From NCBI GenBank assembly GCA_030681595.1, contig JAUXSB010000033.1, positions 12,223 to 76,222 of the forward strand: DNA of 64,000 nt. The letters run 5' to 3'. Below the pieces are notes generated by a model. That model was not told the DNA's origin, ran no database searches, and worked only from the letters and a program-made list of their open reading frames with translations. Positions 1-64,000 of the stretch are shown piece by piece. The first letter of the stretch is position 1; each line of letters opens with the position of its first letter. The position numbers and the translations under genes are program-made. Source of the stretch: Candidatus Omnitrophota bacterium. Its GTDB lineage: Bacteria > Omnitrophota > Gorgyraeia > Ghiorseimicrobiales > Ghiorseimicrobiaceae.

Positions 1-3000
1 GGGCGGTTGTGCTTAAGTTTTTCTACCGTAGTAAGCTTGATCAAGCGCTGCTTATTCAGCGGACTTGCGCCGCTAGATACATACCCTAAAGAAGCTCTTA
101 ATAAAGGAAGATCTAAGTTGGCGTAGTAATCCCGGAGAAAATCCCTTACTCTATTCTCCGCATGGCTCATCTTTATACGCTGGATGAATAATTTAAGATA
201 ATACTCGTTTAATATATCATGGCGCGTTTCTTGGCTATCTACCTCATCCAAAACCAGCACTTCATAAATACGGGCGAATACCTCTTGAGCTATCCTGCTT
301 TCTGCGTCTTTAAAACCGCGGAGGCGCTCAAATAAAAGATTATAAGCTCCATTAAGCATAAATTCGGCAAAAGCATCTTCTTCTTTGGTAAAATTATAAA
401 GTTCGGAAAACTGCGCTAAGGCATTTATTTTTGCTTCTGACAACATACCTTCAGCGGCTGTGCCGTAAACCTTATATACCCCCGGAACACGGATAACCTT
501 GTTTATTTCCTCATTACTCATAAGAGACGTGCGTTCCGGCAGGCTATGGCTAAGAGAAGAATATAAATTATGATACATCCTGATATGGCTTAGGATATAG
601 GCATGCGTACCTATATTGTCGTAGTCTTTATCTATAAAGACTACCGGGCCGAAAGGAGTAATTATGTGCATGGCCCGCGGATTAAGCGGCGTTAATTTAT
701 ACCGCTCTACGATTTCTTCAAATTCTTGGCTTGTGCTGACCTTAACAAAAGATTCATTCCTTAGCATCGTGGTAATCCGGCTATAACAGGCAGCACCGTT
801 TGTGCCAAAGTTATCCCACTCGAGGAAATGCGGGCTTTCATCCCTGGAGTTTATAGCGCCGACTCCGCCGCTGCCTGCCCAAAGAATACCCATATTAGAA
901 TTAGAATACATCTCATCGGCGTGGGTTTGCGCCCGGGGAAACTCTTCGGAAATCCTTAAAAACAGCTCGTTAATAATTTTATTCTGCCCAGGAACTAACT
1001 CACTATCTCTGTAGGGATAAATCAATTTAAAGAAAATCTTTAAATCCGTGATATTGTTTTTATTTTTTGCCAAATACTCATTTATCGGCCAGCGCAAAAG
1101 TGCCTTGTGGGAAAAATGTCCCAGAGCTATAAATTGCTTTCTGCGGCTTTTCCAGCTGGCCGCAAAACCGGTGCAAACAGCTAAATCAGGCGTTAAAATC
1201 AGCTCGTTATCATCTACCTCCATTATCAAAAACGGGTCTGCCCCGCCCCAGGAAAGGATATAGGTTTTTACTCCACCATAGGCAGTAACTTTTATCATCT
1301 CATTTACTAGCGTTGGATAATTAAAATTTCCCTTTAGCGCAGTTACTTGCGATAAAAATGAACGTGTAAAAAATAATTCAGCCTTTCTCTTTAGAAAAAC
1401 AAAATCTTTTTCTGTCAAATCGCCTGAATTTAACTGGATATGCTTCTTAAGCCCGAAGTATGAGCCGTTTATTCTATATATGTTATTTTCGGAACTTTTT
1501 TTATCGCTTGATTTAAACGGCGAAGAAGACGCTAAAGACCCGTTAGCCTCCGGGATGGCGGATACTTCTTTCTCAACTAATTTTATTACTTTACTCAATA
1601 GAACCTTCCAGCCCTGCAAAGAATCCGCGCTTTCTAACTGGTCATCTTCTATATACAAAACATCATAAGCATTTAATAATTCTCTTAATACTGCTTTACG
1701 CCGATCTATTTCTTTGATTAAATTAGGGGGATTACTATTTTTCTCTTTTATGCTGTCCAAGCGTCTATATTCATCAAATATCTCGCTGCCAATTTTGCCA
1801 ACTTCTTCTTTAAGCGCGGCCATGCTTTTACTGGAATCTTTTTTATTTTCAGCAATAGCTTTTATTTCCAGTGTTTTCTTCTGAAGGCCGATCAGCCATC
1901 TGTCAAAATCGCCGATTTTAGCAAATTGTAATTTTCTAGCCTCTTCCCAGAGAAGTTTCAACCTAAAATCTTCCTCCTGCTTCTTTGCTTCTCGATGAAG
2001 TTTTGATTCAAATTCAACCTGTTCTCTATTTTTTATTACCCTTATGCTTATGCGCGGCATTTTTAATCCGCCCAATACGGCCATAAGTTCTTCCGCAGAG
2101 CTGCTATTTATATTGAAACTCTTAAGGATACCGGCTAAATGCTTAAGATTATTGTTAAAATTCGCGATTAAACGATGGTCAATTGTGATATTATTTAAAA
2201 AGATGTCCTCAAAATTCCGGCGATGTGAAACAAAATAATCTTTAATAATGGACACCGTAGATTCTGTTTTACGCAGGCGCTCATCAATATCTTTCATATA
2301 CCCTGCCAGAGAATACGTATATTCTCCTGTCTTCTTTACATCCATATACTTATAATCGGCGCTCATTATTGAAAAAAGCGAAAGCAGATTATAGGCTCTT
2401 TTTGCGGAAAGGTTACCGCCTTTGGCCAGTTTATATACTATCTTTGCCATAGCCATCTTCGATAGTTCGCTTAGGCTAAGAATAGCCATCAGATAATTTC
2501 TCTGCGAATAAACGCTCAATAAATTTAATTTTTCATATCGTCTTCCTATGGTATTCTCATCTTCTAAATAACATTCGCCTCCGGCTATCCTTAGCAACGT
2601 TTCATTTGTTACAGCGGGAGCCGCAAAGAACGACCTTATATCGGCCAATACCCTTTCCACTGTAACCGGCTTTATGCCTAAAATTTTGGCAATAGAGCGT
2701 ATGCTTTCACCATTATTAAGAAGCCTTAAAATCTCTATCCTTCTGCCGTATAGCTCATTCTGTTTTATGCGTAATTTTAGCCGGTATAAATCTGCGTCGG
2801 CATCAAGGAAACCTTCCTCTATGGCCTTCTTAACAATCGCAAGCGTCGACTTATTTGGGAATACCCTATCGTCCTTATCTAAATTAACCTCGAGATTCCT
2901 GGCTATCTGCCAAAAACTTTCCCTTACATTGCTTTCATCTCTTTGAGTTATAAAGGCAATCTCTTCATAATCTAAGCCGTCTTTAATAAGGCTGAGTACC

Positions 3001-9000: not shown

Positions 9001-12000
9001 ATTCTTCTTAAATTCGCATAAAGTTTTCTTGTAAAAGGCGGGACATTCTCATCGTTAATATCAAAAAATATTAAGGATTCCTGCTTTTTAATTTCGTTTT
9101 CTAATAGTTTAAGGATATATGCATCATCATTTATGAATTTATCCGCCTGCGCCTTATTTAGAATTTTTTCAATTTGTTCTACAACATGCTTTAGCTTATT
9201 AACATTGGCTAAAATTATTGTTAATATATTTTCACGTGAAACATAATAGCCGGACAAATCTCCTTTTTTAATCTTTATTGCCCGGAGGCTATCTTCAAAG
9301 GCGCCCATATAACGAGGTAATCTATCTCTGATTAAATTTTTTATATTCTCATTGGTAATTCTGCCGTCAAATTCGACTATAGGTGAGGCGGCGGGTTCTC
9401 TTTTTCCTTCAACCTCATGTGCACTGCGGGAGTGCACACGGTTTATGCCTTCTGAATTCACCGGCGAAGCGGCGAAATGCTTTTCTTCGCTCGGAATAAA
9501 TAGCATAGAGTAGCCGCTATCCTGCTTAAAAATAAGCACTGCGGCAGAACCAGAAACAAGGACCCACCAGCCACGGAAGGAATCTTGTCCTGTATTAATT
9601 GCTCTCTGCCGCAGTGAAATATCCGAATTTGAAAGCGTTTTCTTATTTCCTAAAATAAAAATGAAGGGATAAATAACTTCTGCCGCGCTGATAAACGAGG
9701 CGGAAGAAGGAAGGATAAAGCTATAACTTGTAACTAATTTTTGCGGCGGGCTGTGCTCGGATAAAGAAAACCATCCAATCAGTTGATATATTGCCCCGGC
9801 GCCGGGAAATCCCCCACCAGCCACGGAGAGGTAGACTTCCCTAAAGAACGAAGCGCCGGAGACAAACGTATTTTTTAATGGAGAAGAATTACCTGTTTTA
9901 TCCCCCAAAAGCCTATTCTTATACTCATTTTCAAAGCCGGAATAATCATCATCGCAAGAACAATCTTCTCCGGCATCGAGGTCTTCTTCTGACAAGATGT
10001 CATCATATACATTAGTTTTAAATAACGGCTTAACAGCCTTCTTTTTTTCTACGCCGTTAATCTGCTTAAAGATTTGCTCCCTATACTCTTTTTTTAACTG
10101 GCATCCGACAAGATAAAACTTTATAATCTCATCTCGCTTTTTTTCTTTCAGAAACCTAATAATCTTTTCTTGTTGTTCTGCGGTTAAGATCTTTGAAACA
10201 GCTAATTCAAATACAGAGTACTTAGGTTCATATCTTTTCTTTAAATGTGCCTTAAATTTTATTAATCCGTTCTCAAGGGCAATCTGATACTGCGTAAACC
10301 TGTAAAGCCCGAACTGATATATAAGTTTATCCCTGCCAAAAATTATATTATCTTTATTTAACCCTAATCTATATTTTAGAATTTCGCGCTCTGTTTCATT
10401 TAAAGCATCTAAACTATCAAGGCCCCTGGCTAACTTGCCCTTAATTACGATAAACTCTTGGGCGCATACCCGGATAAAACCATCTATAACGTTATCAATG
10501 ATGCGCGGCGTAAGATTAAAAAACTTTTTCTTCTCTAATGCGGCAATCAGCTTCTCATGCCTATAGCCGTTTCTTATCCCTTCCTCAATAAACCTTAAAC
10601 GCAAAAGTTGCTCGTTGCGCTTAGCTATGCCTTCCATGTCATCTTGCCTAACGCTCCGGGAAAAAATAGGCAGCCTTTCTATATACAACTTCATCAATCT
10701 GTCTAGCTCAATGGCAGGAATGACCCCATAGATAAGCACATTTGTAATTACCTTTTTCTCAGCAATAGATATTTCCCTTATATCGCGAACCTGCTTCTCA
10801 TTAGAACGCTCCTCAATATAAGCCTTTAACTTATTATGGGCGTTTAAGGTTGGATTAACTTTTAAAATCCTAAGCAGGCCTTTTTCTATTCTGCGTATCC
10901 TATCACGCAACTCATGCTTTAGAGGGATTGAACGCGGCATTTTACTAAAAAACCTTGCTAAGTCATTTCTGACTAATTCTATATCCTCGCCAGATACGGT
11001 ATTTTCTTTAATATATAACTCTAACAAGATATTTACCTCCTGGTAATCTAAGCCCAAAAGGTTAACCAGTACGTCTTTTATGCTAGAGGCAAAATAATCA
11101 GAGTCTATCTTTATTTTTCCTTCGAATAAATCATTAAGTAAATAATAGTATTCTTCATAATCATACGACGCAAGCAAAATGGTTGGTATTTCTATAGAAC
11201 AGATATTATTCTTTAGGCCCCAGGCAATGCGTTTTAACGCTTCTTCAGCCGCATCTCTTCTGCCGATAATATCGTATCTCTCTGGGTGTTTTATGCCTAA
11301 TCCCTGCGGCCCTAATAAGGCATACAGCACCTCTTTATGGCTAGAGCGATGGTGCCCTATGCTGACAATCCGTAGTAAAATATGCTCAATACTCATTGTT
11401 AAATCATCCGCATTTATTTCGTAATGTTTAAAATAGTTTAAAATACTCAACTTAAACCAGAAGATAAACTGTTCAATATAATTATCAAGGTTGTCCAATG
11501 ATTTTCTGCGCTTTAAGAATTTAAGGGTGCGGGATAATTCATGTTTTATGTATTTTCTACCTGTATGGACAGCGATGGAATTATCTTTAATTATCGCTGA
11601 GCTGGAAGAGCTATGTTTGATATCAAAATCCCTGCCTTCCCAGCCGGGTTTGGTGTACCAGTAGAAGGTGAAACGTTCCGCCCAAGAAGGCAGATATGCC
11701 CTAAAGGCGCCTGCTTCATCACTCCATTCCAAGCGGACTCTGCCAAGATTATGCCAATCGCCATCTTCGCTGACTTTGGCAAATTGCACAAAACCAGGGC
11801 CATTAACTTGCACTTCCACCTGCTCAGTATCCGGATTAATCTCAATCGAATTAGCTTCGTATTCGGGAAAGGCCCAAGCCTTAGTCTTCTCTTGCGTCTT
11901 TATATTTCTGAAGAAATTAATATTTGCGCCAAAATCTACACCTGCCATCTGACTAATTTCTTCGCTGGCTTCATAGAGATTTAAAACTTGGCGGCTGTTT

Positions 12001-45000: not shown

Positions 45001-48000
45001 CTAAACGCCTCTTTATAGCCGCGGAACGATATTTGCGACATTCCTAAAGGATCTGTTATTCCAAATGCAATGATATGGGTGAATTTATTATTTCTTACTT
45101 CTTCTCTGGTTTCGGCTAAATTAATATCCCCCGCTATAACCCTAAGCGCACCACCCTCTAATCTCTTAATTATTCCGCGATATTGGCCGATATGCTCTTT
45201 CAACATCTTTGCCTCTATTGAATTAGGCACTAAAACAGTAACATCTACACCGTATAACAGCGCGATTAAGGCAAATGAGTAATAGTATCCGGCTGAATAA
45301 ACCTCCAATAAACTCTCGCCCTTTCTAAAATCTAATAAGCTATATGCGGCCTCTCCTAAGCGCAATCTCTCCTTATCCGTAAGCCTCTCTACGCCAAAAG
45401 CGCTTAAGAAACCGCTTTGGAAAGCGGAAAATGCCTCAATATGCTTATGCTCAACCCTGCCGTATTGCAGAAAAAGCCTCTTTAGTTCACTTTCGATAAT
45501 TTCTTTTCGTAATGCCGATAACCTATCTTCCTCTTGCTCTTTTTTCTGCAATGCCTCGATTTCTTTTAGTTTTTTATTCAGCAGTTTTACTGCTTTTGAA
45601 GCAGGACTCATATAGCGAATAGCTGTCCTGATTTTATCCAAGGCGTTTTCCCGTAAAGCTATTGTAGATATATCTATTTCTTTTAATATTGCGTTAGCTT
45701 CCTCTAAATCAGCCTTTTCGTTTTTCGCTTCTGCAAAAATCCTTAATTCTTGGTGCTCCCTATCTATCTCTCTAGCCAATTGTATTTTCTTATCCTGTAA
45801 TATCTTTTCCATCGGGGCTAATTGATAATACTCCCTTAAATTCTTATCCATCCCGTTTATGCGCCCAAGTAACGCGTTTACTTCTTCTATGGATAAATCT
45901 TTTTCTAATTCCGGAGTGATTTCATTAACCAGCGCAAGTAAGGCTATTTCTTTTTCCGCTAAATCTTTTGAGCGCGACGCTTCATCTCTTAATTTATTAA
46001 TTTCTTTATCATCTACGGTTATTGAAAGTATCTCGGATTCGATAAGCCCTAATGCCTCTTTATACTGGCCTTCATAATAAAATTCCCGCGCGATGTCTAA
46101 GGCATCTTTAGCCTGCCTTAACAGCGTATTTCTTAAATTATAGCCTTCCCTTATCGCATTAAGACGCTGCGAAATCTCCGAAGTTAGATTCTCAAGCCAA
46201 ATCAATTCATTTATTGCATTTGGATTATCCTCTGAAATGCTATTTTCGTATTCTTTAATTTTCGTAAGCGCAATACCTAAAGAAACCTGGCTACCTGTCC
46301 TGACAAGTTGCTCTAATGTCTTCATGAATTCTTGGCGCCTGCTATCTATAGGAGAAGAATTCATCCCGCCGATAATTTTATTTATAATATTTATGTCGGA
46401 TTCTAGCTCTTCATGATGAGTTTTGTACTTTAAAATTACCGCGCCGTTAAAGTTTCTCTGTAGCAGATTAGCAATTGTCAACTCCGCAACGCTTATCATC
46501 TCTGGATTGGAAAGGTTCCCCGGAAGATAAACTGCCTTAATAGGCACTGTTTTATCCAACCATTTCCAGAATTCTTCCATGTTATGCCCGCCTTCTAATA
46601 GATGCTCTACATTTAGACTAAAGCCTATATTTTCCCGGTTATGCAGAAAATCAAAAAGGTTAGATATGTCGAGCCAGCTGTGCACTGGTAGATTCTCGAT
46701 ATTGAGTTTGACCTTTTTTTCTTCCAATAGAGAAATAACGCTTTGTATCATGCCGAAAAATGCGTATCTGGCATATTCTGACTTTACTATTCCGGGCAGG
46801 TGAACGTTTACGGCCCTGGCGTTAATGCTGGCGCCAAATTCTATAGCTTTCAACCATAATGATATATTCTTGAAATCCTTAAAAATGTCGATATTGTTCG
46901 CGTGGACAAAAATAGTCCTATCGGAGGCTTCCTGATTAAACCAGCCCCTCCAAGATTCCAATATATCATCCGGAGTAAAACCATCAAAATGAATCACAAA
47001 TACCTTTAAAGCCTCGGGAGTAAATTTATAAGTATCTTCGATTTTTTCATGCGGCCTGTTTTTCCTTCCTAGCAAAATACCCCTGTAATCATCCGGCGTC
47101 TTTATTGGGCTTGAGGCATATTTTCTCTGCACGCGCATGATAAAACCGCCTGTGCTTATAAACGGAATCCTTAAATCGTGTATGACCTGCCTATACTGTT
47201 CTTGGGTTAATAATATCGGGGAGGAGGAAACCGGCAATTCAATAGTGAATTCCGCGCCCATGCCGAATTCGCTCTTGACGCTCATATCCCCGCCTAATAT
47301 ATTCAGGATTTTCTTAGCGCGGTAAAGGGTAAGCGATCCGGCAAATGTTTTGGTAGAAAACAACGGCATAAAAATATAAAGGATATCTTCGGCAGTTATG
47401 CCCGCGCCATTATCGCTTATGGAAATTTTGATTCTATCTCTCAACTTAGAAACGCGTATCTCTATCTTATTTGCCTTTGCCTCAAGGGCATTCTTAAACA
47501 TATGTAAGATAATCGTCCCCAAATCTTCGCTAACCATAACCTTTACCTCTTCCTTCAATTCCGAAACATAGCCAATCGACGCCCCAAAAGACTTTACAAT
47601 TTCTTGCAAGAAGCTATCAATCTTAACTTCCTCTATATTTTTCTTAATTGCAGACTCATCAATTTTTAACGAAGAAAGCACATTTGATACTATGAATGTT
47701 ATGTTTCCGTGATCCCGGAACATACCCGCTATTAACTCTTGGGAATATCGAATAAATTCGTTATTATTGGTTTCATTTACCTTCTCGGCCAAATTGTTTA
47801 ACGATTCAAGAATCTGTTTCTCAATAGCCTCAACATACTTTGCTACCGAAAATAAAGCATCGTCTAATTCCTTCTGGGTATCGCGGTTAATACCTTTATG
47901 CAGCTTGAAATACCTTTCTACTTTTCCCTCTAAATAAATAATCCTTTCCAACAATTCACCTACAATATCTTTAGTATTAAACTCTTCAGCTTTCTTCAGT

Positions 48001-51000
48001 ATGCGCCGCGCGAAACCACCCAGACTCGTGAAAGGATTACGCGTATGATGGTGCAAACCATCAAGAACGCGCCGGCCGGCAAGGATATACCGGGTTTTCT
48101 CCGCTTCTTTCCTTACTTCCTCATTGCCATCCTCAAGGGATATCCTCAAAAACCATGACGCCTTCTTATTGCTGATAGCGCGTAAATCTATCGCCATCTG
48201 CCTCCTTATCTCTGGGTCTTGCGACCTTATTAATTCAAGTATTAAATCCCCGGCTAATTTATGAGCGGGATAATAATAAGCAAGTATGACTATAGCCGAA
48301 TGTTTTTCTAGCTGGTCTTTGGTCAGATACCTGTCTTTCTGCTTATGTAATAATTCGTTAATATTCTCCTCGCTACGCGCTTTTACTATCAACCTTACTA
48401 AATCATCAGGCCCTTCGGACGCCCATTTATAATCCTCCTCTTTATTTCCCTTATGGCTAAAATATATAGTAAATTCAAAAAATCCTTCGTTCTCTTCCGG
48501 GATATCCGTCGGAATAATTTGCAGCTCGATTCTAAAGATATTACCCTTTTCATATATATGTTGCTTGTAACTTATGCCCGGTTTCCTGCCATACACCTTC
48601 CTATTGTCCTTGTAGATATTCACTATTTCTATATTTTCCCTGACAACTTTTCTACTTCTATGCGGCCGCACGCCTACCTCAATATAGCCATCACTAATAA
48701 ATCCAAGAAACTCCTCCATGCTTACGTCTCTGTCGAATTTTACCGTAGCATAAGCAAAGAAAGCATCGCCTACTATTACCTCATTCGTATCTTCCCTATC
48801 ATGAGCAATATCCCAGGCACCGACTATTTTCGGTAACTCGTTAGCATTATTGTTCTTAATCGGCGAAGAAACTTTGCCAACAGATATTTTCGCTGTAACT
48901 CCCTGCTGCTCTTCGACTGATATATTATTACCCCTTAGAGAGCGATTGTATCCCGCCAGCCACGCCCCGTTAGAAAGTGACGAATACCCACCACCAGCCA
49001 CGGAAGGTAAGATATCGCCTTTAAAAATTGTCTTTCTAACGGGGCACGGAAGGTAATACAATCTCTTTATGTAGCTTCTCTCTAAAGGGTTATTTAAATT
49101 TAACGGACTGGAGTTAGCCTTTGAATTTATCTTTATAGCAGCGGGCTTGCGACTTTCCCAATATATCTCGGATAAGCCCAAAAGCCACCAATACCTCTTC
49201 TTATAAACTCTATGGGAAGTAAACCCGGCTGAATGTAAAGCTTTACCAACAAAAGTGCGCTTGAGTAAATTAGCGTCTATAATAAGCCTTTGCTTAAGAG
49301 CGCGTTTTAAAAATTTCTTTGTCCTATCCTCTCTTATCATCATGCGAATCGCAATATCATCACGCAGCCTTGCGAATAATAATTTTAGGGCGCAAGCAAC
49401 CAAATTAAGCCCTTTAGGATAGTTCTCGGTAGTATCCGATGCCACTTCCAAGACAACCTCTTTATTTTTCAACATGAAATCCATTCCTATTTGCGCAAAG
49501 AGATTACTGTTTTCGTCAACGATGTCAATAACTACGCCCTTTCCTGATAATATGCCTTTCCCTAATAAAGAATAAACCTGCAGTTGGTACATCTTCTGGT
49601 CGTTAGCCTTAAGCCACTGGCGGTTTAGGCCTTCTGATATTTCTTTTATTTGCTTAGCAATAGGCGTGAGTTCTTTTCCGGCATTATCCTTTTCGTAAAC
49701 AGAAATTATGCTCTCTAACAACTGCCCCTGCTCGTCTTTGCTAAGCTTCATTATATCCGGCGCAAATATCTTAATTATGCCGGTCTCGGGGTCAATGTAC
49801 GCTGTATCACGCCCAATTCGTAAATCCTCCCTCTCGGCCTTATAAAATTCGGGAATAAGCGCTTCTTTCTCTAATTTATCGTTCGGTATCGGCGAACTCA
49901 TTTTTCTATCTTTTACCTGCCTGAATTGTTCCGGGGCCGTAAAACGCATCTTGGTGCTAAAGTAAGTGCCAAAATAACCAAAAGGTATTTCTATATTCAA
50001 CAAATTAATGACTTCATAAAACCTCTCTACTAAAGATGCCGCTTCCCTAATCTGATGCGTGCTTGAGACACCCTCAAAAATCAGCACTTTTTTACGGCTT
50101 ATAATAAAGCTGGAAATAATTTTGGCCAACTTCTTTGTTGAGACTACCCAATCCCCTTCAATATGTATTACTACATCCCTCTTTTCTGCCCTTAATCCTA
50201 ATCCGCCTCTCTCCATATAAGAGGACAACTCTGTTTTTCCAACACCCTGGTCACCATCTATGACTAAAATTACTTTCTTATCGCTTCTCTCGATAAAAGA
50301 ACGAATCTTCCTAATTCCTTTGTCTACCGGCATCATAACCCCGGATTTTCTCTTTGGCAGCCGGGAAATCTGTTCTCGTAAGAATATAGCGTTTCTTAAT
50401 CTATTAATATGCTCTTCTTTGTAAAGCGGCGAGTTGGAGGGGCCTTTGCCGATTTGAACAACCCATTCTTTTTCGCTCATAAGAAGAAGGGACGTAAAAG
50501 GTAGGACAGGCGTAGCATAAGTATCACCTTTGGAATACACGGTATCGATAATCACTCCTTTAACGCTGTCAGAACCAGGATTGCATATACATAAGAGTAT
50601 CTTTGAAATTTTCTTTTCTTTCGCTAACCAATTCACAACCTTAGCTGCGGAAATTTCACCAATATACACTTTTCCCTGTTTTTTCTCTCCCCTTGCGCCC
50701 AAGAAAGGTCCTTCGTATTTAAAACCTTTCTTGAATTCAGAAACGGTAATGAGTGTGGCTTTGACTTCTCGAACAAAAACAGCAGAACCTGGATTGTTCA
50801 AAAGAATATATTCCATCTGATCAATACTCTGTTGGGGCTCTAATTCAAAAATAAGAATTGGGAATTTGGTTAATAATATAGGGGAGGAGACGATGACTGA
50901 TGGCTGATGACCTGGTAACTTTTCTTCCACCGGCGAACTGCTTAATGCCTCTTCAGCGAAAGATATTTTTTCCCGGATTGAGGAAAGGCTTGCTTCTGTT

Positions 51001-54000
51001 TCTTTTCTTTGTTCGAATAGGCTGATCTTCAGGCCGGTTTGGGACCCAATCAAGTCGGATTCCTGTTGGCGAATGTCACTGAGTTTAGCTTCTAGTTTAG
51101 CTTCCTTGGCTTTGAGCCAAGCGATAATTTTTTTCCCTTCCCACACCGCCCTACCAAAATATAAATCAGCTAAAATTGCAATATAAAAGTCGGTTATCTG
51201 CTCATCAGTAAAACCTAATTTCTTTAAATCTCTAACTGCTTTAAGGCGGAGATCAAAGTTTGGATCAACTAATTTCTTAATTAATCTCGATACTCGAGTT
51301 ATTCTAAAAGAAATCCATATTCCCAACAGCTCTGCGATTGCGATACTAATATACGAATGCAAGGTTCTTACCAGCGCACCGGGAAAACCGGAAGACCCAT
51401 TCTTTCCTGCAAGTTTTGAGCTATGCGGATTAGAAGTTGAGTTATTATCGATATTATTCTTCTTATCGGGAGACTTGCTTGCCATTGAGGCAAAAACATT
51501 AAGGGTTAATAAAAACATCCAGACGAGATTAAATAGATTGCTGGTAGCAGCATAAGAATAATATATGGAATTTGCCGTCAAAGCGGATATATAAGTTAAT
51601 AAACCTATTTTTGGCCTTGACATAAAAAATCTTTCCGCGAAGAAAAATCCTTTTGGCATCATTTTTCTAAAAAACTCATAGCGGCCGTAGATAAATCCAG
51701 CTATGACTGCCGTGGCACTAAAAAGATGTATAGGCATCATATTGAATACCAATACAAACATTATCCCCGGTTTATAAAAATTTATTTCTTTATTAAATAA
51801 CTTGGCGGCAACCAAACTTGCTATTCCGCTTACGGCAAATGCTAATAGAGCATTAACAGCACTTTTGGTTAGAGCATAACCAATTAGAACATAGTCAAAA
51901 GGATAACCGCCAAGGCTATATGCAATAGTTAAAACCGCAAGTATCCCTAATACAATCTTCGTTTTTGTTGATATTTCTTGCGTCGTTATGTTATCATCTT
52001 GCGTCTTTTTCGCCATGGCGGGCCTGCCCGACTTATTTGTGGCGGGTGAGCTATTAGAGATAGTCTTATTAGCGATAATGAACTTCACAAAATTAGAAAG
52101 GATTTTTAATTGCGTATTCTCTGAAAGCTCAAAGAAATAAGGGTGGAGGATTAATGTTTCGCTAGAAATAAAACGGTTAAATGCGGCAGTATAGGGCAGA
52201 TTGGTTTTGAAATCTTTAATTAATTCGTATCCTTCGGTAAGGATTTTAACATAGAAGTAAAAATCAGGCGGCGCGCGGATTTCCTGACTTAATAAATGGG
52301 CTTGTTTCGTTAATATTTCCTGCCATTTAAGATAAAGCTTGCCTTCTGCCAAGGTTACTTTAATATCTTTGCCTAAGCTTATCTTCACAAATGCTATGAA
52401 GCCGCTTCCCTCATTAGAAATTATTCGTTTATGCTCCGCTTCGAGAACAGGCAAATTTGAAAACGGTAAACCAAGCGGGCTGGCGGATTGGCCCAATGCC
52501 TCAGCAGTAATAAAGTCCCGCCTTTGCCTCTTAGCAGCAGATGACAAGTCGTTTTTGTCCACCGGCGAGCTGGATGAAGATGGATACGAGGCATTATCTT
52601 TAGGTATTACTCTGGACGCCTCAATGGTTTTTAATATCCTATTCCCAACGATAATATTAACCAACAACACACCCCACGATACAAACACTATATCTCTTAT
52701 ACCCGTCGGCATCGCGATGTTTTCGGTCATAAAAAATAGTATAGCCCCCAAAGAAGCCGCAGACGCAATCAGTGCTGCCGTGCCCAATTTCAGCATCACA
52801 TCAACGATGGCTTCTAATTTCCGCACCCTATCACCTAACGCCGCCGGAGAGTTAGATTTTAATTCCTCTTCGCTTTGATTATCTTTTGTATATTTTACGG
52901 TGCTGTTTGCTTTTATCGCTTTTATTGTCTCTAGTGTATGCTTTACAAACGAAACCATGGCGGCAATAAACACTACCGACTCCGGTATGCCAAGCGAAAG
53001 AGGGCTGGCGGATTGGCCCAGGAAATCAAATGTCTTCCTGCCAACCAATTCCCAGATAAACTGTGACTTGGATTCCTTAAAACCTTTATAATCAACAACG
53101 TTATCAACTATAAGCATAATGCTCCTGTAAAGGGGGATACCGTATTTACCGGATGGCGCCTCATTCATGACATGCCTAAACAGACCCCCATAATCTTCAT
53201 AATCAAGATTAAACTCGGAGATATTTCCTTTTGCAATCACCGGAATAATAATATAACCTTCCTTTGAATCCGCCTGCTTAGCCAAAGCGGATAATCTTAC
53301 GATAAGCTCCTCAGAGTTCATTGTTACATCTAACTCAAAATAAGGAGTAATTACTTTGGGTAAGAGATTACGGGTTGCTTGGGCAAACTCTTTAGGATGG
53401 CTGACCGCAACAAGAGAGCTTTTACAATAAGGATTACGGTGCTCATCTAGTATTTGAATAACTTCGCCTGCCTGCTGCCTAATCTTTTCTTCTTGCTCTG
53501 GAGTAATAGGCGAAGAATTTCCTTGAATAGAATCGAACGGATTATAATATCCCTTGCCTTCTTTTTCCCACTGCCTAATATCATTCGTGATATTTTGAAT
53601 AATCGGAGAAGATAAACTAAAATCTTTTTCGCCTACCTTTTTATTAATGCCATAATATTTTATATTGATCCCTCCCTTATTATCTACAGTTACGATTTTT
53701 CTAAGCAAAGAGGTGCTTGGTTTTTCAAAATTTTGTTCAGGAATCCCATTTTGATCTTGTAAGTATTTCTGAATATCTTCTACTTTCCATCTTCTTAAAG
53801 GAGCTGTATCTTTCGGTGTGGGAGTCATTGGATCGTCAGAATAAACAATCATAATTATCCAATCTTTCCCTCTAATATCCTTAAATGAACTTTCCATAAA
53901 ATCTTTCTCTTTTTGCTTATCTTCATCTTCATGCCATCCATAAATATGAACCACTTTCGTTTTGCCTGTTTTACTATTGTAAGCTATTGTTGCTAAACAA

Positions 54001-57000
54001 ATTTCTAGAAAAACTAGTAGTTCCATATTATTATCTTCAGGCCCTAATTCTCCACAGTCCCATTCTTTTATGGTCTTCCATTCCTTGCCTTTTGCCTCTT
54101 GCGAATTCACCGGAGAAGATGGATTTTCACTGATTGGGCCGAAAATAGTGTCGTTTCTGCTTAACTCTTCTATTTTCAAATAGTTAGGATTAAATTCACC
54201 ACTATTCTTCACCGCGGGCGAGTCTGCGATAGAATTAAACAAAGAATCATAAAGCTGAACTAAGATATGCTTAATCTCATCTACCTGCGCATCGCTTAAG
54301 ACAAAATAAGGATAAGTTTTTAAATGTTGACGTTTAGCTTCTATAAAACCCAAGAGGGAATCTAATGTTATTTGCCCCCTGCTAATAATCTTTCTTGCGC
54401 CCTCTGTCAGATAGAACTTTGCAAGCCTGCGTACCCAGCCCTGCAAAGCTAAATTAGTTACCCCGTCTGATTCTGAATAGCGAAGATTGTTTTTAATCGC
54501 GTTTAATCTATCCTCCAGCGAAAACTTATCATTGAAGAATTTATTAATGATTCTGCGTTCTTTTTTTGACAGCTCTTCTGACCAGCTCACCCAAGTTTCA
54601 TAGATTCTATCTAAATCGGATACGGCACAAAGCATATCCGCATCATGCAATATTCGCGCTTCGGAGAATTTAAGATGTTCTTCTCTGGGCTGGCCATTTT
54701 CTGCTTTTTCATGGCCTTTTACTATCTGCTTAAGTTCTGGCCTGACGGCCTTATTAAATCTTTCCTCCTTAGTTAAGATTGCACTCATCCATATGGCTGA
54801 ATTCTCTACATGGTTATCCCTGTGCACAATGCAAGCTAAATCGTGCATAAGGATAGATATAATCAGCTTTTCCATATCTACCCCAGCCGCTAAATCCGGC
54901 TCCTCTTTGATAATTTCTAAAGCGACTCTTAAAACCTCTAAAGCATGAGGCAAACCATGTTTAGCAACAATGCCTCTATCAAGATAAAAACGCTTAAACA
55001 AATTAAACGGCATCCAGCGATGAGCTACTTCTATATAATTCCATATATAACCAACAAACTGCGCTGTCTTATCACTATCGCTAAAGATAGTTTCTAGAGA
55101 AGGTTGAATTTGTTGTAAGAATTCTTCTATTCTTAAATAGGCGTTAGATAATTCTCTATCGGAAAGCTGGCTTAAAGCTACTACTTGCGGCACATCGCGC
55201 ACCAAATTAGAGAAAAGATACTCTTCATTTTTCTTATTTAATGCTTCATCGTCGGTTAGCAGGAATTTATCCCTAAAGTCGCGAATTTCATGATCCGTCA
55301 GATCTTTATTTTTCAGCGAATCAATGGCTTTCTGGAATTCTTTTTCCGCCAGCGAGCTGGAGCGGACACGGACAAAGGAAACAACTTGACCTGACAATAA
55401 AGATATGATATCTTCGGTAAGAACTACTTGATAAGGAGGCGCTGAATGAACAATAGAATCATGGAGCGGTTGGAAATACTTGAAGAGAAAATTGAAAATC
55501 TCAAATGGCTGGTCATCACGCCTATCTCTCTTGGTAAAGCCGATATTTCTAACGCTGTCGGCATCATTAGAAAAAGTTCGGGTCTCTTGAATAAGTCTCT
55601 TACCAAAGGAATTGTCTTTGAAAACAAAATCCGCAGGCAATGGACGGCTGATTTCCTTAAAAGAAGGGGTTAACCAATGAGATACCTCATTGATACCAAT
55701 ATAATTATTGACCACCTGCGGGGAGACAAATCCGTTACTGCTTTTCTTGAAGAGATAGAAAAGCGGCAAGCTAAAGCGAGTATCTCTGTAATTACCGAAT
55801 ACGAACTCCTTATTTATCCCTCGCTTAATAAACAGCAGGAAAAAGAAATAATTTCCTTCGTAAGAATCTTTGCTCTGCTTAACATCACCCCATCCATTGT
55901 AAAAACCGCCGCCCGCCTTAAGAGAAAGTATAGCGGCATTGGCATCGTTGATTCCCTCATCGCCGCTACCGCCTACAAAAACAAGTCTATCCTTATCACC
56001 CGCAATATCAAACATTTTAAAGATATTAAGGAAATCCAAATAAAGTCTATTTAAGAAATCCCTGATTCCTTCCGCCGGCGAGCTGGAGCGCATTAACGCC
56101 CATGATAAAGAATCTATTATGGCGTTATAATTAGGCGAATAAGACGTGATACGTTTATCATTCTTCGTATCATAGAGAACATAGCGCAGCTCACCGTCTT
56201 CCAAAGAATGCCTTATAATCACCTCTACGCTTTCAATCCTATATTCAGCACCGTCAAGAGCTCTTAATATGCTGCCGGCCTTATAGGGGATTTGCGCTAA
56301 AATAATCTCTTCTATTGATTCCCTTAATTGAGTAATCTCTTCGATAGCTGATTTTTTCATCGCCCCAAGTTCAAGGCTGCAGCCAACGCACGCACCGCTA
56401 TCTTTTAGCTTCTGCTCAAAATCTTTAACTTTTTTCTGGATATCAGCTATCTGTTCTAACGCGACCTCGATAGACTGCGCCTTATCACCGCTTATTTCGG
56501 GTAATTTTTTAAGAATAGGGCTGGAAAAACCCTTGGCCTGCATTAACTGACGGGGTACAGTTTTAAAATCTCCATCCAGAAAAGACTCAAGCAACATCGC
56601 AGTTTCTTTGTCAGATAGGATTATTTTCCCCCAACGTACAGCATGTAAAAATTTAATAATATCGTAGCTACCGGCAGAAATTAGTTCTCTGCCAAAGCGC
56701 CTATCAATAAAATTTGCCACTTTAGAAAAATCAATAATATTATCTTTTAATTTCAACCGCATAATGCTATCTTGTAATATTTCCTCTGTAAAATTCTTCT
56801 CTTTACCGTAGTTTTCCAAAGAATCAATAAATGATGAAAAATTGCCTTCCGTAAACTTATATGCATCCTCCAAAATCCACTCCAGAGAAGATATTAAATG
56901 GTATGTTCTTGGCCTATTCCAAGCACTATGATCGTCTATTGTAAAAATAAGTATTGAAATATTTTTAACAACACTAAAGAACCGGTCTATCCTTCTGACA

Positions 57001-60000
57001 AAAAGGTTAAATTCTTTGGCATCTTCATCTGAAAACATCGTCGTTGCCCCTGATTTAATCTTCGCAAAAGGAGTCCTTAAGTAAAAAGGCATGGAAAGAT
57101 CTTCCGTGATTAACTTAGCCTCGCCTTTCCTCGCATAAGTAATTTCATAAGTTTGATATATACTGGCATACTCACGCTCTACATCTATAACCTCCAAATC
57201 TAATACCTCATAGCCTTGTTCTTTTAAACGAGCTCTCTCCTGACTTAAATAGGTGCATTCAACCGTCGTGGTCAGGATGCCCTGACCGGTTAATTCTTTA
57301 TACTTTTGGATATCCAATCCAGCATACCTTAATTCTAAATTGATGGCATATCTGAGGGTTTCAAGGGTGTCGCTTATATCTACTATATCTAAAATAACCT
57401 CTCTTAACCTCTTGTCGCTGTAACCTTTGTCCCTCGTGGATTTCATTAAGGCCGGTATCAAACGCGCTGTCTCTAAAACCGGAACAAACGAACTTTCATC
57501 TGTAAGGAACTTAATAATGGCCGGCCTGCCTTCTTCCAGTGTTCGGTAGGCGTTTATACCCTCTTTGTCTAATATAGATGCCAACGCCTCAAGGAATTCC
57601 AAATATAAATTATATTTACCTACATCTCCTTTCGCCTTTTCTATAGCTATTGGAACACCCCACTTTAACGTAGAACAGAAAGGAACTAATTTCTCTTTTA
57701 ATCTCAAGCCGAGGTTTAAAGCCGGCACAAGATAAAGATCCTCACTCCCCGTCTGTTGTAATAATGCGGGAACAGCGACTTTTCTTGCGTATTCAAGATC
57801 ATCATCCGGGTTCAATTTCTTTAACAACTGCTCAATTAATTGTCCACTTATTTCACTCACCGGCGAGCTGGGGAGAGATTCTGGCCCTTCTTTGCTTTGA
57901 TTATTTTTAGCGTCTTTCGCCGCACCTTTTGCTTTTATCGCTTTTATTGTCTCTAAAGTATGTTTTATAAGCGAAACTATGGCGGCACTAAGCACGGCTA
58001 ATTCCGGCATACTAAGCGAAAGAGGGCTGGCGGATTGGCCCGATGCCTCAATCGTCTTATTTATCAAAGTATTTCCTTCTTGGATATCCTCCGGTAAGTC
58101 GGAGGTAGTATCGTCAAAAAGAGAACCGCCACCCTTTTCAACATCATACAGTCCTTCATATTCGAAATAATCCTCTTCGCTTAACGGCGTAAAATAGGAC
58201 TTGCGAGAAACAATATCTCCCCACTTTACTCCATTGAGATAAGGCCCGTACGCATCAGACCAATAGGTTTCATGTTTGGGGTTTCTATTAATTCTATCCA
58301 CTAATACTTGAGCCGGGCCTTCAATTAAACCTCTCTCTACGGGAGACTGATGTGGATCCCCCCACTCATCTCCGGAAAAACAATATATTCTTTTTTCAAT
58401 ATCAATGGCTAATTCATTATCTACCATTATAATATCTTTAACGTCGGTCGCCCTCACAGTTCCGGGGAAAATTTTACTTATTTCGTGAACAACCGGAATC
58501 CCGGCCAATATTCTTCTTTGCTCTTTAAGCCTGGCGGTAATAAAAGCCCGCCTTTGCCTCTTAGCAGCAGATGACAAGTAGTTTTTATTCCCCGGCGAGC
58601 TGGAGCGTATCCACTCCTTAGGCCTAAAACTAACTCTGACTATAGGGTTAATTAAAGCGTTGTTCCTTCTCTGCATATTCTTTATTCCAGACTCATAGGC
58701 TGCAGCCATAAGTTTTATACCTATGCCATGGTCGCTGGCTAACGATACTGCTCTATCAAAAGGCTTACCTTCAAAAAGGATGTCTAAAAATTCTTTACTT
58801 GGGGACTTATCATCTTCTAACTTTGGTGTTTCTTCTAGTATTGGCTCGCTATTTTCAAAAATAAGGTTGCTTTTAAACGTCCTCATATAGCGGTGGTTTT
58901 CCCCTCCTAATGCCTTTGGTTTTTTGTGCAGTTGAGGATCAAAAATCCTGGCTTCTCTCGTATATCTAATATCTAAAGCTTTATGAAGAACAACCCTGAC
59001 ATCCTCAATCTTTACAAGCCCTGAACGAAGCTTCATTTCTTGAGAAGGATGACGCATTGTAACGCCTTCATGTTTTAGGCTCAAATGAACAGTAGTTATC
59101 AAGTTACCTTTGCTAAAAAAGTCTATAACAACATCTGTATTCACATCATAGAGGTCTTTTACGGGACGATATTGATTAATTTCTTTATCAGCAATACGAT
59201 GCACTATGCCATTGCTATCCCTTTTGAAAGGAAAGGCTTCATATAAATCAAGAGGTGTTTTCCAAACAGTATTTACATCCGCATAATCAATGATAATGTC
59301 TGAATACCTTAACAACCAAGGAATAATATCAAAAAAGTGGTAGCCGGAATGAGCCATTTTGCCGCCCCAACGAGAATAGAGCGCATTGTATATCCCATAA
59401 CTGCCGGGCCACTGGTCTTTGCTGAATATAGGGTATCCATCATTTACCTGATATACAATACTCTCTACTGGAATCTTCTTGTTGTTTAAACGCGCAGAGG
59501 AAATGTGGCCTGCCATTCTTTTAAATATATCTCCGTAGCGCTTCTGCGTAGCAAGCATAAAAAGTACGCCCTTAGGACACTTACCACGCAGCTCTTTATA
59601 ATCTTTATATATTTTTCGGGCAGCAGCTATATCTGTGTTGCATTTCTTTGGAAGAGTCAGCGGCTTATCAACTAATACGTGAAAATTATTTTTTAGCGCC
59701 CATTTCACATATGTTTTATGCGTATCCGCGCCTGTAGAAACCACAATCGCCTTTTTAGCATAGGACTGTAACCTTTCTTTCGCCTCATCTTTCCACCGCG
59801 TTGATATAGGTATCTCTATTTGCTCCCGGTTCACACCAATACTTCTATAAAATTCCTCCAGTTCTGCCTCGTGTTTTTTATACCAACTTTCATTTTCACG
59901 CTTTCTGCCTTGCTTTTTATTATAATATTTAAGGTCAACAACTCCCACTAACCTACTTTTTCCTTCTCGCTGATATTCCCTTATGGTCTGTAAATGCGCT

Positions 60001-63000
60001 GATAACGCATATCTTCCTGCCCCGATAAGAACGATTCCTACTTCCTCCGCCGGCCTGCCCGACTTCTTTGTGGCGGGCGAGCTGACAGGCGTAAGTTTTT
60101 TCCTTGCAATTGCTGATATACGCTCACCTCTCCCTTCCTTCTCAATCTTTTCCTTATCACGTTTTATTCGTATAAAATCAGCATCGCTGATTCTTCCATG
60201 CCTATGCTCACGCTCTACTTTCTTAAGATTAACTTCTGTTTCTAAAGCCACAACTTCGAATCCATTGCGTCTCAATAAATTACTTAATGAATCCGGGGAA
60301 AAGAAGTAGAAATGGCCAATCATATGATCATAGAACTCTCCCTTCTGCAATTCAGCCACTTCGCTATCCAAATTAGGAGATCTGGTTATATAAATATATC
60401 CACCTTCTCTTAATACACGGTGGGCTTGTTTAATCTCGGCATTAGGATCAATCAAGTGCTCCATAACGGCAAAATAGCACAACAAGTCAAATTCTTTATC
60501 CTTGCGATCTTGTAAGGTTCCTACAAAGCCATCAACTCTTTTTTCCTTTAGGCTTGCTACGGCAGTAGGCGAGGGATCGATGCCTATAGTTTCAATTCCT
60601 TTTTTTGCTAAAAGATTAATGTAATCCGATACTGTACCGCATCCTACATCTGCCGCTCGTTTTATTTGATGATTACCTCCTATTATGGAAAATAAATGAT
60701 TTAATTCTGATTGCGCTCTTTCTAATCTCCTCTGTGACGCGGTATAGCCGCTAGTCCAATTCCTAACCCACATTTCGCTAACGTACTTTAGATGACAACC
60801 TTGACACTCTACAATAATATGAAGCTCAGAAGCTCTATATCCTACTCCTTTAACGGCGGTCTTTCCTTTGGGGACCTCATTACTACCAACGATAGGGTGT
60901 ACTTTGAGAAATTCTTTCTGTCGGGACGAACCGCAAACACAACACCTGTCAGTCTTTATTATATCCAGATATTTGCGTCCCTCTGTATCCCGCATTGCAT
61001 CAGTTTCATTCCTTATGCCTTTATAAAGATAGCTGATGAATTCATGGTAGAGAATTTCTACAGGCAGGCTAAAGAAATACGGATGGATATAAACAGTTTT
61101 TGATGAGATATCGCAGGCGGCGACATTGCCGCGGGTAAAGATTTTTTCGGTGCTGACAATTACGGTAACCTCCGGCGGGCCGCGGGCTATCTGGTTAAGT
61201 TTGGCTAATTGCGCTTTTAATACTCCTTCCCAATTTTCATAGAACCTGCCTTTTTCTAGAACCAAATCATAACCGTCTTTGGTTAACAGGGCTTTTGCTT
61301 TAGTTATTGTGCCTGTGCCGTATTGGGATATGGCCTTGTCATGCTCTTCTTCAGGCACAGGTAAATCATAGGACAGACTTGAAGCAAGGGGGCTGGAGGA
61401 TTCTTTTATTGTATTGAGGAGGCTGGCGGGGGTCAGTCCGGAGATAAATCCAGTCGCCAGCCCATCCCCAATAGCCCCTATCTCTCCTGCCACGCCCGCC
61501 AGACCGAAGTCGGGCTGGGAAGAAGTTAGCAGCTTGACATTTGATAAAATAAGCCCCGTTAGAGAGCGGAAAATACGCACCACCAGCCACGGAAGGTAAC
61601 GTATAACCGTTATAATCATCTCTAACGGGGCATTGAGATTTACTGGCGAAGATGGATTATTTTCTTTTGAATCCGCAGAATGCTCAAAAGTAATAAAACT
61701 TAGTTCTCTACCTGTTATATTTAACCTTGTCAAATCCCCATAGCGCAATCCTTTTTCTTCGGCATCCAAGAAATATTTCAATATCGGCCCAAATCCGGAA
61801 TGCCGAACATTATCTTGGCCGCGTTCATTCCTAGCCACAAGAATATCAGAATTTTTGGCTATGCTGTCAAAAGCTGAACCCAGATAAATAGGAATATAAA
61901 CGCGCTCTTTGCGAGTTAGCAACAGAAAATCGTCAAGGTTGGAATCCCCTATTGCTAAAACAGCGCCTTCGGATTGCAAAGTATCCAATTCTTCCCTAAT
62001 AACATCCCGTTTACCTCTCAGGACAACCTCTGTAAAGCTTGTACCTCCAAAGAATAAATATTTATTTTCTTTATCAAATTCGCTGTTCCGTCCAAATAAG
62101 ATTCGCTGGGTTAATGCTGGGATATCCGAACCGGAAATCGGTGTGTTCTCTTTATAGAAAACAAGAACTAATGCGCTTCCAAAAGGCCAAAATTGGATAC
62201 CTTTAATATGTGTAATATGGGTGGCTATTTTTTCTAATCTCTTCAATTCTTCGTTAAGGTTCCCGACCATATCAGTAGACCATATCTCTTTTGCTTGAGG
62301 CCCCGCCAAGAAAGTTTCCAAAGACATATTTTTATGCAGTGCGCAGAAAACAGATATCATGGCTCGTCCGATTTCTATTTGGATATTTTCCGGGATCCCC
62401 TTCTTTTCATCCTCAGATATCCTTTCCTCTCCTTGCTCATTAAAAATAACAACCCCCTTATCGTTAACGTAATATATTTTAAGGTTCTGTATATGTTCCA
62501 TCTTACCTAAAGCTTTTAAAGTCTTTCTGACAGGAATCGCAATACGTTTCTGAAGAGATTTTCTCCCGAAATTCATTCCTGCATATTCAGCCAAATAAGG
62601 ACTTCCGCTGATCGAGATGAATCTCTTATCGCTCAGTAAACACCGCAGGGTTTGTTCTAAGTTCAACCCGCTCACTGGGGTAATATTATCCGTCATGGTG
62701 TAATCAACATCACTAACAACGGCGGCTATTTTAACTTTCTCATCTTGGATCGGACTGTTGCCGATATTCTTTGTAACCACAAAGACAATCCAGCCACGGT
62801 CTTTTTCAAACTCAATCCGTGTTTCTTTACTGATCCTCTTGCCTTCTCTATCAAGCAGGAATATCTGTTCACCTTCCACCTCATAACTATGGACTTTGGA
62901 CAGAACGTCATTCAACCAATACAAATATTCATCCTTGTTAGAGAGCTTATAAATTTCAACGCGATCCTGAGTCAAGACAGCCACGCGCCTATGATGGGGA

Positions 63001-64000: not shown

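Follow-up and report, generated by a model that had tools for sequence, protein, structure and literature searches.

Giant open reading frames (ORFs) of more than 20 kb are commonly carried by Omnitrophota (Seymour et al. 2023; PMC10066038), and genes of up to 85,804 codons have been described, including an 'Archaeovorin' type that encodes methyltransferases, glycosyl hydrolases, peptidases and glycolytic enzymes (West-Roberts et al. 2023; bioRxiv 10.1101/2023.11.21.568195). Giants of up to 147,155 amino acids (aa) have also been described, together with a 'multi-enzyme metabolic cluster' class that is rich in methyltransferase, HATPase_c, HD, HAD and hexokinase domains (Nielsen & Lui 2026; bioRxiv 10.64898/2026.06.07.730766). 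Class features reported elsewhere include an N-terminal signal/C39/S8 peptidase, a SecA_DEAD-like domain and many transmembrane helices. For one giant ORF of the Omnitrophota phylum there is a report of peptides detected by proteomics, and West-Roberts et al. treat as unknown whether and where the products are cut, leaving open cleavage of either the transcript or the product. The present study concerns a 64,000-nucleotide (nt) stretch of contig JAUXSB010000033.1, referred to in its whole length as the window, in which one minus-strand frame runs from edge to edge without a stop codon and a toxin-antitoxin (TA) gene pair, vapBC, is nested on the opposite strand. The window very probably lies wholly inside a genuine giant gene, one of the Omnitrophota multi-enzyme class, whose frame selection for read-through keeps open.

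The window is like the Archaeovorin/multi-enzyme giants in forming one ORF of tens of kb tiled by diverse enzyme and regulator Pfam domains such as methyltransferase, HATPase_c, HD, hexokinase, glycosyl hydrolase, TPR and peptidase, in its poor sequence conservation, in the candidate membrane helices interspersed along it and in having metagenome-assembled genomes (MAGs) of Omnitrophota as its nearest relatives. It differs in that its closest homologues are only local matches of 36-59%, and in that no SecA_DEAD-like domain and no C39 or S8 peptidase was found in its 21 thousand aa (Pfam, E<1e-3), the gene's termini lying outside the window. With 21,332 codons it is longer than the 10,000 aa from which Nielsen & Lui count giants, and the threshold of more than 30,000 aa used by West-Roberts et al. 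lies beyond the window. The window gene is a new, very divergent member of this already described multi-enzyme (Archaeovorin-like) class. That no SecA_DEAD or C39 domain lies in the window weighs against that placement, as does the fact that the window holds no rRNA, tRNA or marker gene, so that its taxon is read from the nearest relatives only. A sequence-only reading of the window had called its content of enzymes and regulators, rather than adhesins, unusual; giants of exactly this kind are described by West-Roberts et al. and by Nielsen & Lui, and the remark does not stand. A text search of these two papers and of Seymour et al. gave no junction motif, antisense nested genes or embedded hairpin.

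Reading frame and coding status

In a six-frame translation, TAA, TAG and TGA were absent from all 21,332 codons of one minus-strand frame (positions 3..63998), while the remaining five frames held 714, 1,497, 1,195, 1,775 and 2,191 stops and no open run longer than 183 codons. Residues of the giant protein are numbered such that residue i corresponds to window positions (63999-3i)..(64001-3i). Both window edges leave the frame open; the segment has neither a start nor a stop, the gene is therefore at least 21,332 codons long, and its ends lie outside the window. Base composition sets the chance of a stop at about 0.07 for each codon of that strand, so that the probability of zero stops in 21,332 codons by chance is, by our own arithmetic, about 10^-676. 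The assignment of 3..63998 as an internal segment of a giant gene is based on the stop count, codon usage and Pfam domains.

Codon-usage scoring ranked the giant frame best in 212 of 212 bins of 600 nt, a result that is partly circular because the ORF's own codon usage was used for scoring. When stops were ignored, 416 of 424 bins of 450 nt clearly favoured the giant frame. Four of the eight exceptional bins are at guest elements (the vapBC cassette and three places with copies of a hairpin described below), two are in a transmembrane-rich stretch, and the last two cover 60549-61148, where there is no nested gene to account for the low score; no antisense ORF was found in the low-score regions 51249-51848 and 60549-61148. 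The product has an ordinary protein composition, codon-position asymmetry is clear, and GC skew is negative in 32 of 32 bins of 2 kb, a uniform sign that is consistent with one transcription unit. Scans of the window for tRNA genes and Rfam families gave no match.

These results agree with the sequence-only reading, which had described the whole 64-kb window as one stop-free minus-strand frame and had proposed a computational translation and stop count as a check; that count is 0 in frame. Its further claim, of an ORF that exceeds 64 kb (21,000 aa) and runs past both edges as a piece of a giant gene, finds support in the stop count, the coding statistics and the Pfam domains, and is borne out further by the homologous modules of Omnitrophota MAGs within stop-free frames of more than 7,000 codons and by stop avoidance in a segment free of amino acid constraint (see below). 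It was also right that the giant frame stays open antisense to vapBC, a PIN gene with an upstream small ORF at 55446..56054 on the plus strand, and the GC-rich islands it had pointed out correspond to the GC-rich codons of the junction motif, the hairpin repeats and a 24-bp tandem repeat.

Nested antisense cassettes and proposed read-through

The cassette in the window begins with a sigma-70-like promoter identified by promoter scan (55386..55414, plus strand; TTGACC, a 17-nt spacer and a TG-extended TATCTT), followed by a ribosome-binding site (RBS; AAGGAGG). Next come a 75-aa ORF for a putative antitoxin, 'vapB' (55446..55673, plus strand), which has homologous ORFs in the related loci L080-L082, and, after a spacing of 3 nt, vapC (55677..56054 with the stop included, plus strand), which encodes a 125-aa PIN-domain toxin (PF01850, 67.8 bits against a cutoff of 23.6 bits, with profile positions 1-118 of 120 matched). 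VapC also matches the solved VapC 7by2 (E 1e-8), and the alignment shows D6, E42/E44, D92 and the LITRN motif. NCBIfam VapC equivalogs score under their cutoffs (55 vs 140), and the protein is therefore classed as a PIN/VapC-family toxin, not as a named equivalog; the 75-aa vapB ORF had no match to an antitoxin family in Pfam or NCBIfam. Judged by these features, the plus-strand vapBC is a real gene pair, predicted to act as a toxin and its antitoxin. It shares with type II VapBC systems the small upstream ORF, the 125-aa PIN toxin 3 nt further on, and a promoter and RBS of its own, but differs from them in that the pair lies entirely within an opposite-strand gene, is codon-aligned with it and is purged of TTA/CTA/TCA, and in that the putative antitoxin matches no known family.

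Since vapB and vapC are both codon-aligned antisense to the giant frame, stops in that frame equal TTA, CTA and TCA codons in vapBC. None of these codons occurs among the 20 Leu and 15 Ser codons of the pair (P ~1e-6 under host codon usage); TTA makes up 37% of Leu codons in the giant gene. The cassette is flanked by a 21-bp direct repeat of family D13 (TTCCGCCrGCGAGCTGGAGCG, not assigned to a strand), the left copy of which (55344..55364) reads RSSSLAE on the giant strand, a copy of the junction motif described below with Pro changed to Leu, and the right copy of which (56070..56090), 726 bp (242 codons) from the left, reads RSSSPAE. The 16 other plus-strand ORFs of at least 100 aa in the window had no Pfam match.

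A tblastn-type scan of JGI metagenomes for VapC returned 80 loci. Three of them, L080, L081 and L082, are the nearest (70-72% identity). Contig Ga0082335_1000071 (309 kb) carries L080 and L082 at a distance of 58 kb from each other, and contig Ga0315294_10000007 (259 kb) carries L081; each of the three cassettes lies antisense in a frame that is stop-free over the full 20.4-kb locus. There are thus four full cassette copies in three contigs (the window and L080-L082), all four of which keep the TTGAC and TAT hexamers, the AAGGAG RBS, the vapB homologue and vapC, and a partial copy, L083 (65% identity), in which the giant frame is open across the cassette to the contig end. Only short antisense frames, and 3-14 TTA/CTA/TCA codons, were found in the examined relatives of 56% identity or less and in the degenerate L111. 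Because the giant proteins around the four full copies have no detectable similarity over about 3,300 aa per side, the cassette segment excepted, the four copies occupy different sites.

Between copies, dN/dS is 0.04-0.11 for vapC and about 0.2 for vapB, while the same cassette DNA read in the giant frame gives about 1-2; synonymous differences are saturated (pS 0.5-0.8). Of the three antisense frames of each copy, that of the giant gene holds 0 stops, and the remaining two hold 3-9 and 22-29. vapBC is under purifying selection and the overlapped giant-frame peptide is unconstrained, yet stops in the giant frame are excluded. As stops are excluded without amino acid constraint, we infer that translation of the giant gene must continue through the cassette segment, with ribosomes crossing it, and that giant ORFs are read as one unit whose downstream modules do not come from internal starts.

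Further cases of nesting were observed in these loci. L082 holds a second, unrelated PIN gene of 151 aa (L082:5802-6254, plus strand, within the region 5653-6257), antisense in the stop-free giant frame; the small ORF upstream of this gene is preceded by a promoter-like TTGAC..TATGGT and by GGAGG. L080 holds a gene for a retropepsin-like aspartyl protease of 152 aa (L080:1461-1916, plus strand), also antisense in the stop-free giant frame; of the three antisense frames, both genes are stop-free in the host frame only. The partial copy L083 is a 1.6-kb marine sediment contig of 33% GC, with a vapC whose 12 Leu and 6 Ser codons include no TTA/CTA/TCA. Its antisense frame shuts just upstream of the cassette, which is possibly at the C-terminal end of a giant ORF. 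On contig L160, from the Candidatus Omnitrophica MAG GCA_023818905.1, a DUF433/DUF5615 (PIN-like) TA pair (L160:56-638) stands divergent at the annotated start of a giant ORF, and the called start of that giant ORF (591) falls inside the 80-aa DUF433 ORF of the pair (399-638), which the gene caller shortened to 54 aa. Text searches of the giant-gene preprints, Seymour et al. and a wider collection of papers gave no report of such nested genes.

There are other potential explanations for an open frame of this length. It is possible, though unlikely, that the frame is a fused 'super-operon' that is open for another reason, with modules made separately by mRNA processing or internal initiation and no giant polypeptide. 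This would fit with the cleavage of transcript or product that West-Roberts et al. leave open, and the stable sense-strand hairpins found shortly after junction motifs could be RNA-processing or stabilising sites. However, separate products would have no stop codons to end them, the hexokinase module described below has no Met or other start between its junction and the domain, and stop avoidance in an unconstrained segment of 242 codons, in four independent copies, is hard to explain otherwise; the proteomic peptides from one giant ORF of the phylum also speak for a polypeptide. It is less probable still, and in our judgement very improbable, that vapBC was inserted antisense in a recent accident, lacks giant-frame stops by coincidence and is uninformative on selection. 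The window holds a single cassette, and the 21-bp direct repeats on its two sides, 95% identical, might date from a recent event, but the chance of such an outcome under host codon usage is the ~1e-6 given above, the four full copies on three contigs and the partial L083 share the property at non-homologous sites despite pS of 0.5-0.8, the more distant, non-nested relatives all show no stop avoidance, and the L082 PIN and L080 retropepsin-like genes are equally transparent in their host frames. That the frame is an artefact is barely conceivable, be it of chimeric assembly, of synthetic concatenation or of reading under a wrong genetic code in which stops are reassigned: short repeated junction sequences are present, but these repeats have diverged and extend over 21-183 nt at most, a chimera would be unable to yield 21,332 stop-free codons in one phase, the same architecture is seen in independent assemblies (L080-L082, L160, and L002 and L003 described below), and stop-codon reassignment is ruled out by the frequency of all three stop codons in other frames and by the nested vapB and vapC, each of which ends in TAA as in the standard code. 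The reading of the window as part of one giant gene, kept open by selection for read-through, is preferred over all of these.

Encoded modules and relatives

Pfam scans on overlapping 1,100-aa chunks of the giant protein identified about 15 families along the whole window, all of them in the giant frame and hence on the minus strand. They include HD domains at five places, TPR (residues ~9540-9782 and 10646-10759), SIR2_2 (residues 8859-9022), PHP (residues 19534-19600) and a helix-turn-helix, HTH (residues 20419-20453). The hexokinase, GH77, methyltransferase, HD, HATPase, SIR2, TPR, M48 and PHP modules are intact. A SAM methyltransferase and a GFO_IDH_MocA oxidoreductase (59616..60674; residues 1109-1251 and 1321-1461) have the junction VSSPA (1306) between them, and HATPase_c, a histidine-kinase-type ATPase (47229..47531; residues 5490-5590), is followed by the junction SSSPI 2 aa past its end. 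The M48-like zinc-metalloprotease (22437..22739; residues 13754-13854; 23.7 bits against a cutoff of 20.3) has an intact HEVFH (HExxH) at residue 13788 and begins 44 aa past the junction ASPL, and the GH77 4-alpha-glucanotransferase (18075..19958; residues 14681-15308; 217.5 + 73.5 bits) ends 40 aa ahead of a junction motif. A xylose-isomerase-like barrel (residues 5710-5809) scored below the Pfam cutoff, and no integrase domain was found in the window by Pfam.

A Kyte-Doolittle (KD) scan gave 19 segments with a mean KD of at least 1.6, about 10 of which have at most one charged residue, and a cluster of hydrophobic 19-mers at 51480..53000 (minus strand; residues ~3667-4173) represents candidate transmembrane helices from the hydropathy scan only. 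A segmental duplication, 52473-53036 vs 57876-58604, matches over 183 nt at 77%, 71 nt at 90% and 31 nt at 94%; it takes in GQSASPL and a hydrophobic helix, SASPLSL(S/G)(M/I)PE.., at residues 1990 and 3664. Overall, the product would be a chain of modules, each like an ordinary free-standing enzyme or regulator, with a few hydrophobic segments interspersed.

The hexokinase module is complete (41631..42968, minus strand; residues 7011-7456; Hexokinase_1 202 bits, Hexokinase_2 236.6 bits), retains all signature motifs and is 37-41% identical to the halves of vertebrate hexokinases. Its Pfam domain spans residues 7021-7452, and SASPL stands on both sides of the module, at residues 7006-7010 (42969-42983) and 7457-7461 (41616-41630), 14 aa before and 6 aa after the domain. 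No Met or start lies between the SASPL junction and the domain. Vertebrate tandem hexokinases dominate the matches to this module in the protein database, and a search of prokaryotic genomes (one per species) with an alignment was used instead, which gave 79 loci. The nearest modules, at 54-59% identity, are in L001 and L002 (Ca. Omnitrophota) and in L003 (labelled uncultured Planctomycetia). The module lies inside long stop-free frames in L001, L002, L003, L007, L031, L062 and L063, and the frames of L002 and L003 exceed both ends of their 21-kb loci (more than 7,080 codons). The roughly 70 remaining loci are ordinary free-standing bacterial genes of 437-500 aa, compared with 446 aa for the window module. 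L062 (JAIWAR010000067.1, labelled Methanosarcinales archaeon) is a 5.2-kb contig made up of one stop-free frame, with a hexokinase of 56% identity and DGG junctions, and was probably binned wrongly, being a piece of an Omnitrophota genome; its methanogen label is notable in view of the attachment of V. archaeovorus to Methanosaeta.

Residues 1-5000 had only two protein matches at E<1e-10 among 5.8 billion clusters, P0001 (3,566 aa) and P0002 (7,695 aa), both partial giant proteins from Candidatus Omnitrophica MAGs; P0002 is encoded on contig L160. An Omnitrophota origin of the window is thus suggested by its best protein matches, and also by its nearest hexokinases, by the labels of the mini-domain matches and by the R1 hairpin common to the window and MAG GCA_023818905.1 (both below).

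Junction peptides

In this gene and some of its relatives, the modules are linked by a short recurrent peptide with the consensus x-[S/A]-S-P-[L/I/V/M], in which the residue past the Pro is mostly L, I or V. In the window protein, [SA][SA]SP[VLIMA] was observed 28 times against 0.26 expected by our calculation, SSP 33 times against 3.1 and ASP 25 times against 3.0; all [SA]SP sites together number 58 against about 6 expected, roughly a tenfold enrichment, with a median spacing of 262 aa (n=58). None of the 58 lies in a Pfam envelope, compared with 7.8 expected (P = 2e-4). Because both TCN and AGY codons are in use for the invariant Ser, the constraint is at least partly on the peptide. Comparable enrichments occur in several relatives: [SA]SP in L081 (29 vs 3.2 expected), where a GH15 domain ends 17 aa ahead of a site; SSP in P0002 (16 vs 1.1 expected); DGG in L002 (19 vs 2.1 expected), where copies at 3323 and 3774 flank the hexokinase module; and KSHP in L080/L082 (7 vs 0.4 expected). 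In L062, DGG stands 3 aa ahead of the hexokinase module. The vapBC slot lies between two junction copies in 3 of the 4 cassettes, the flanking pairs being RSSSPAE/RSSSLAE in the window, SSPAE/SSSPAAASSPAV in L081 and KSHPAA/KSHPTA in L080.

Viral and eukaryotic polyproteins are processed at recurrent cleavage motifs. The window is like them in having many functional units per ORF, units that are set apart by a short recurrent peptide, and an in-cis protease module, but its host is cellular, its scale is 10-100x larger, the motif occurs in a subset of giants, and cleavage is here conjectural. Junction peptides may be polyprotein processing or recognition sites, recognised for example by a protease such as the in-cis M48-like module, and their GC-rich codons may be possible recombination points for gaining or losing modules. 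We offer only tentatively the suggestion that the motif is a point of both cleavage and recombination, cleavage being pure conjecture, and several observations qualify it. Proximity of [SA]SP sites to Pfam envelope edges is not significant (9 of 36 edges vs 8.6 expected). In addition, the junction codons are strongly biased (TCC GCC TCG/AGC CCG), which is also compatible with a DNA-level role or recent spread. Lastly, the motif is not universal, as L001, L003, L007 and most of 38 long mini-domain proteins are without [SA]SP, DGG or SHP enrichment; since most other Omnitrophota giant fragments lack the enrichment, the motif is confined to a subset of giants.

The R1 hairpin

A hairpin of about 90 nt, R1, with an invariant loop (UCCGUGGCUGGUGG) and two covarying stems, was resolved from the repeat families of the window, and a covariance model was built on four copies. 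Within the window, all on the minus strand, copy 1 (61550..61640; cmsearch 97.3 bits, fold z-score -4.5) starts 2 aa past the junction SSPV (residue 783), copy 2 (48961..49054; 87.5 bits) has a partial additional arm upstream, and copy 3 is at 34186..34276 (85.9 bits). Two copies are from outside the training set: copy 4 (9788..9874; 34.9 bits, E 1e-6), 2 aa past the junction SSPL (residue 18038), and copy 5 (9533..9626; 50.2 bits, E 1.5e-10), with entirely different stem sequences. Outside the window, the model located copies at L081:16045-16132, L160:4827-4920 and L160:23364-23452. All copies are on the giant-sense strand, and control loci totalling about 856 kb gave one weak partial match only. 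In an alignment of six sequences, 95% of cells pair, compared with at most 55% in slid controls, and 19 of 25 pairs have changes on both sides, figures that should be read with the caveat that the alignment was fitted to the model.

R1 starts 2-17 aa downstream of an [SA]SP site in 7 of 8 copies. It is read in two phases with no stop in any copy, and its peptide is not conserved because the phases differ. There was no Rfam match for R1. An attC-like site was considered and rejected, since R1 shows conservation in the loop and variation in the stems, the reverse of what attC sites show. R1 resembles REP/MITE palindromes and mRNA-stabilising hairpins in that it recurs, with several copies per locus, as a hairpin of about 90 nt whose stems covary, but differs from them in lying within coding sequence, stop-free in two phases and on the sense strand, with an invariant loop. 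R1 might be a signal for pausing on the mRNA or for its stabilisation, or a MITE-like element that only linkers tolerate.

A recurrent mini-domain and a tandem repeat

A mini-domain, R-G-P-P-E..GNVAACDISSKTVYIHPYFF..LYHEFISY, is found at 60999..61181 (minus strand; residues 940-1000), with further window copies at 52074-52274 and 22899-23072 (minus strand), and follows the pattern R-[GA]-P-P-[DEQ]..GNVAxCDIxSKxV[YF]IHPYFF..LYHE[FL]IS[YH]. It also occurs at residues 99-180 of P0002 and 3282-3325 of L002. The 76-aa mini-domain had only 79 matches in 1.84 billion representative proteins, mostly in proteins of 1,000-7,800 aa and in some cases in multiple copies; 8 of 10 matches that were looked up (the 8 best and 2 picked for [SA]SP enrichment) are labelled Ca. 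Omnitrophota/Omnitrophica. Its identification as a known protease was rejected, there being no Pfam match even at E=10. In P0002 it stands at the extreme N-terminus of the giant ORF, a position which hints either at a possible origin of the window gene by fusion of several genes of this sort or at a role of the domain as a marker of super-module starts. A perfect 24-bp tandem repeat of 3.4 copies (23065..23146, minus strand), in frame as GPPDFIRA x3, runs into one mini-domain copy and looks like a recent in-frame expansion.

Model and implications

In the model proposed here, the gene would be translated continuously and its downstream modules would depend on read-through, while the vapBC cassettes may be selfish addiction modules or anti-deletion stabilisers. 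In gene-dense small genomes, vapBC would survive only as a 'frame-transparent' insert in a junction slot. TA cassettes in chromosomal superintegrons reportedly act as anti-deletion stabilisers (Rowe-Magnus 2003; Szekeres 2007). Superintegrons are alike in holding TA pairs with their own promoters within a long module array split by short repeats, where stabilisation against loss by recombination is plausible. In the window, however, a single reading frame makes up the array, protein modules take the place of the 'cassettes', and no attC sites or integrase were seen, so that the comparison is an analogy only. Also tentative is the wider picture of giant Omnitrophota genes as miniature chromosomes, in which they would encode modular polyproteins, junction peptides would be processing and recombination points, slots would hold frame-transparent guests and TA pairs would protect the gene from deletion. 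If this picture is true, the guests are antisense TA cassettes with their own promoters and sense-strand structured RNA, and stop avoidance would be evolutionary proof of end-to-end translation. The cleavage, deletion-stabilising and hairpin roles are put forward as hypotheses.

The antisense frame-transparent TA cassettes, the lineage-specific junction peptides ([S/A]SP, KSHP, DGG) and the junction-linked structured element appear to be new. To our knowledge, bacteria very rarely have protein-coding genes that lie wholly within a gene of the other strand and are co-adapted with it; those described here form a small family of nested antisense genes that recurs at differing sites. Such guests are invisible in current annotations because gene callers cannot report genes inside a longer ORF. 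Omnitrophota giants of 30,000-147,000 codons are known, and whether they are translated as one unit, how their products are cut and how the genes grow are standing questions. For product cutting, the junction peptides provide concrete candidate cleavage or junction sites in giant proteins. For translation as one unit, the nested opposite-strand pair, whose overlapped giant-frame codons change freely and never become stops, provides evidence of a kind that can be checked computationally in any genome.

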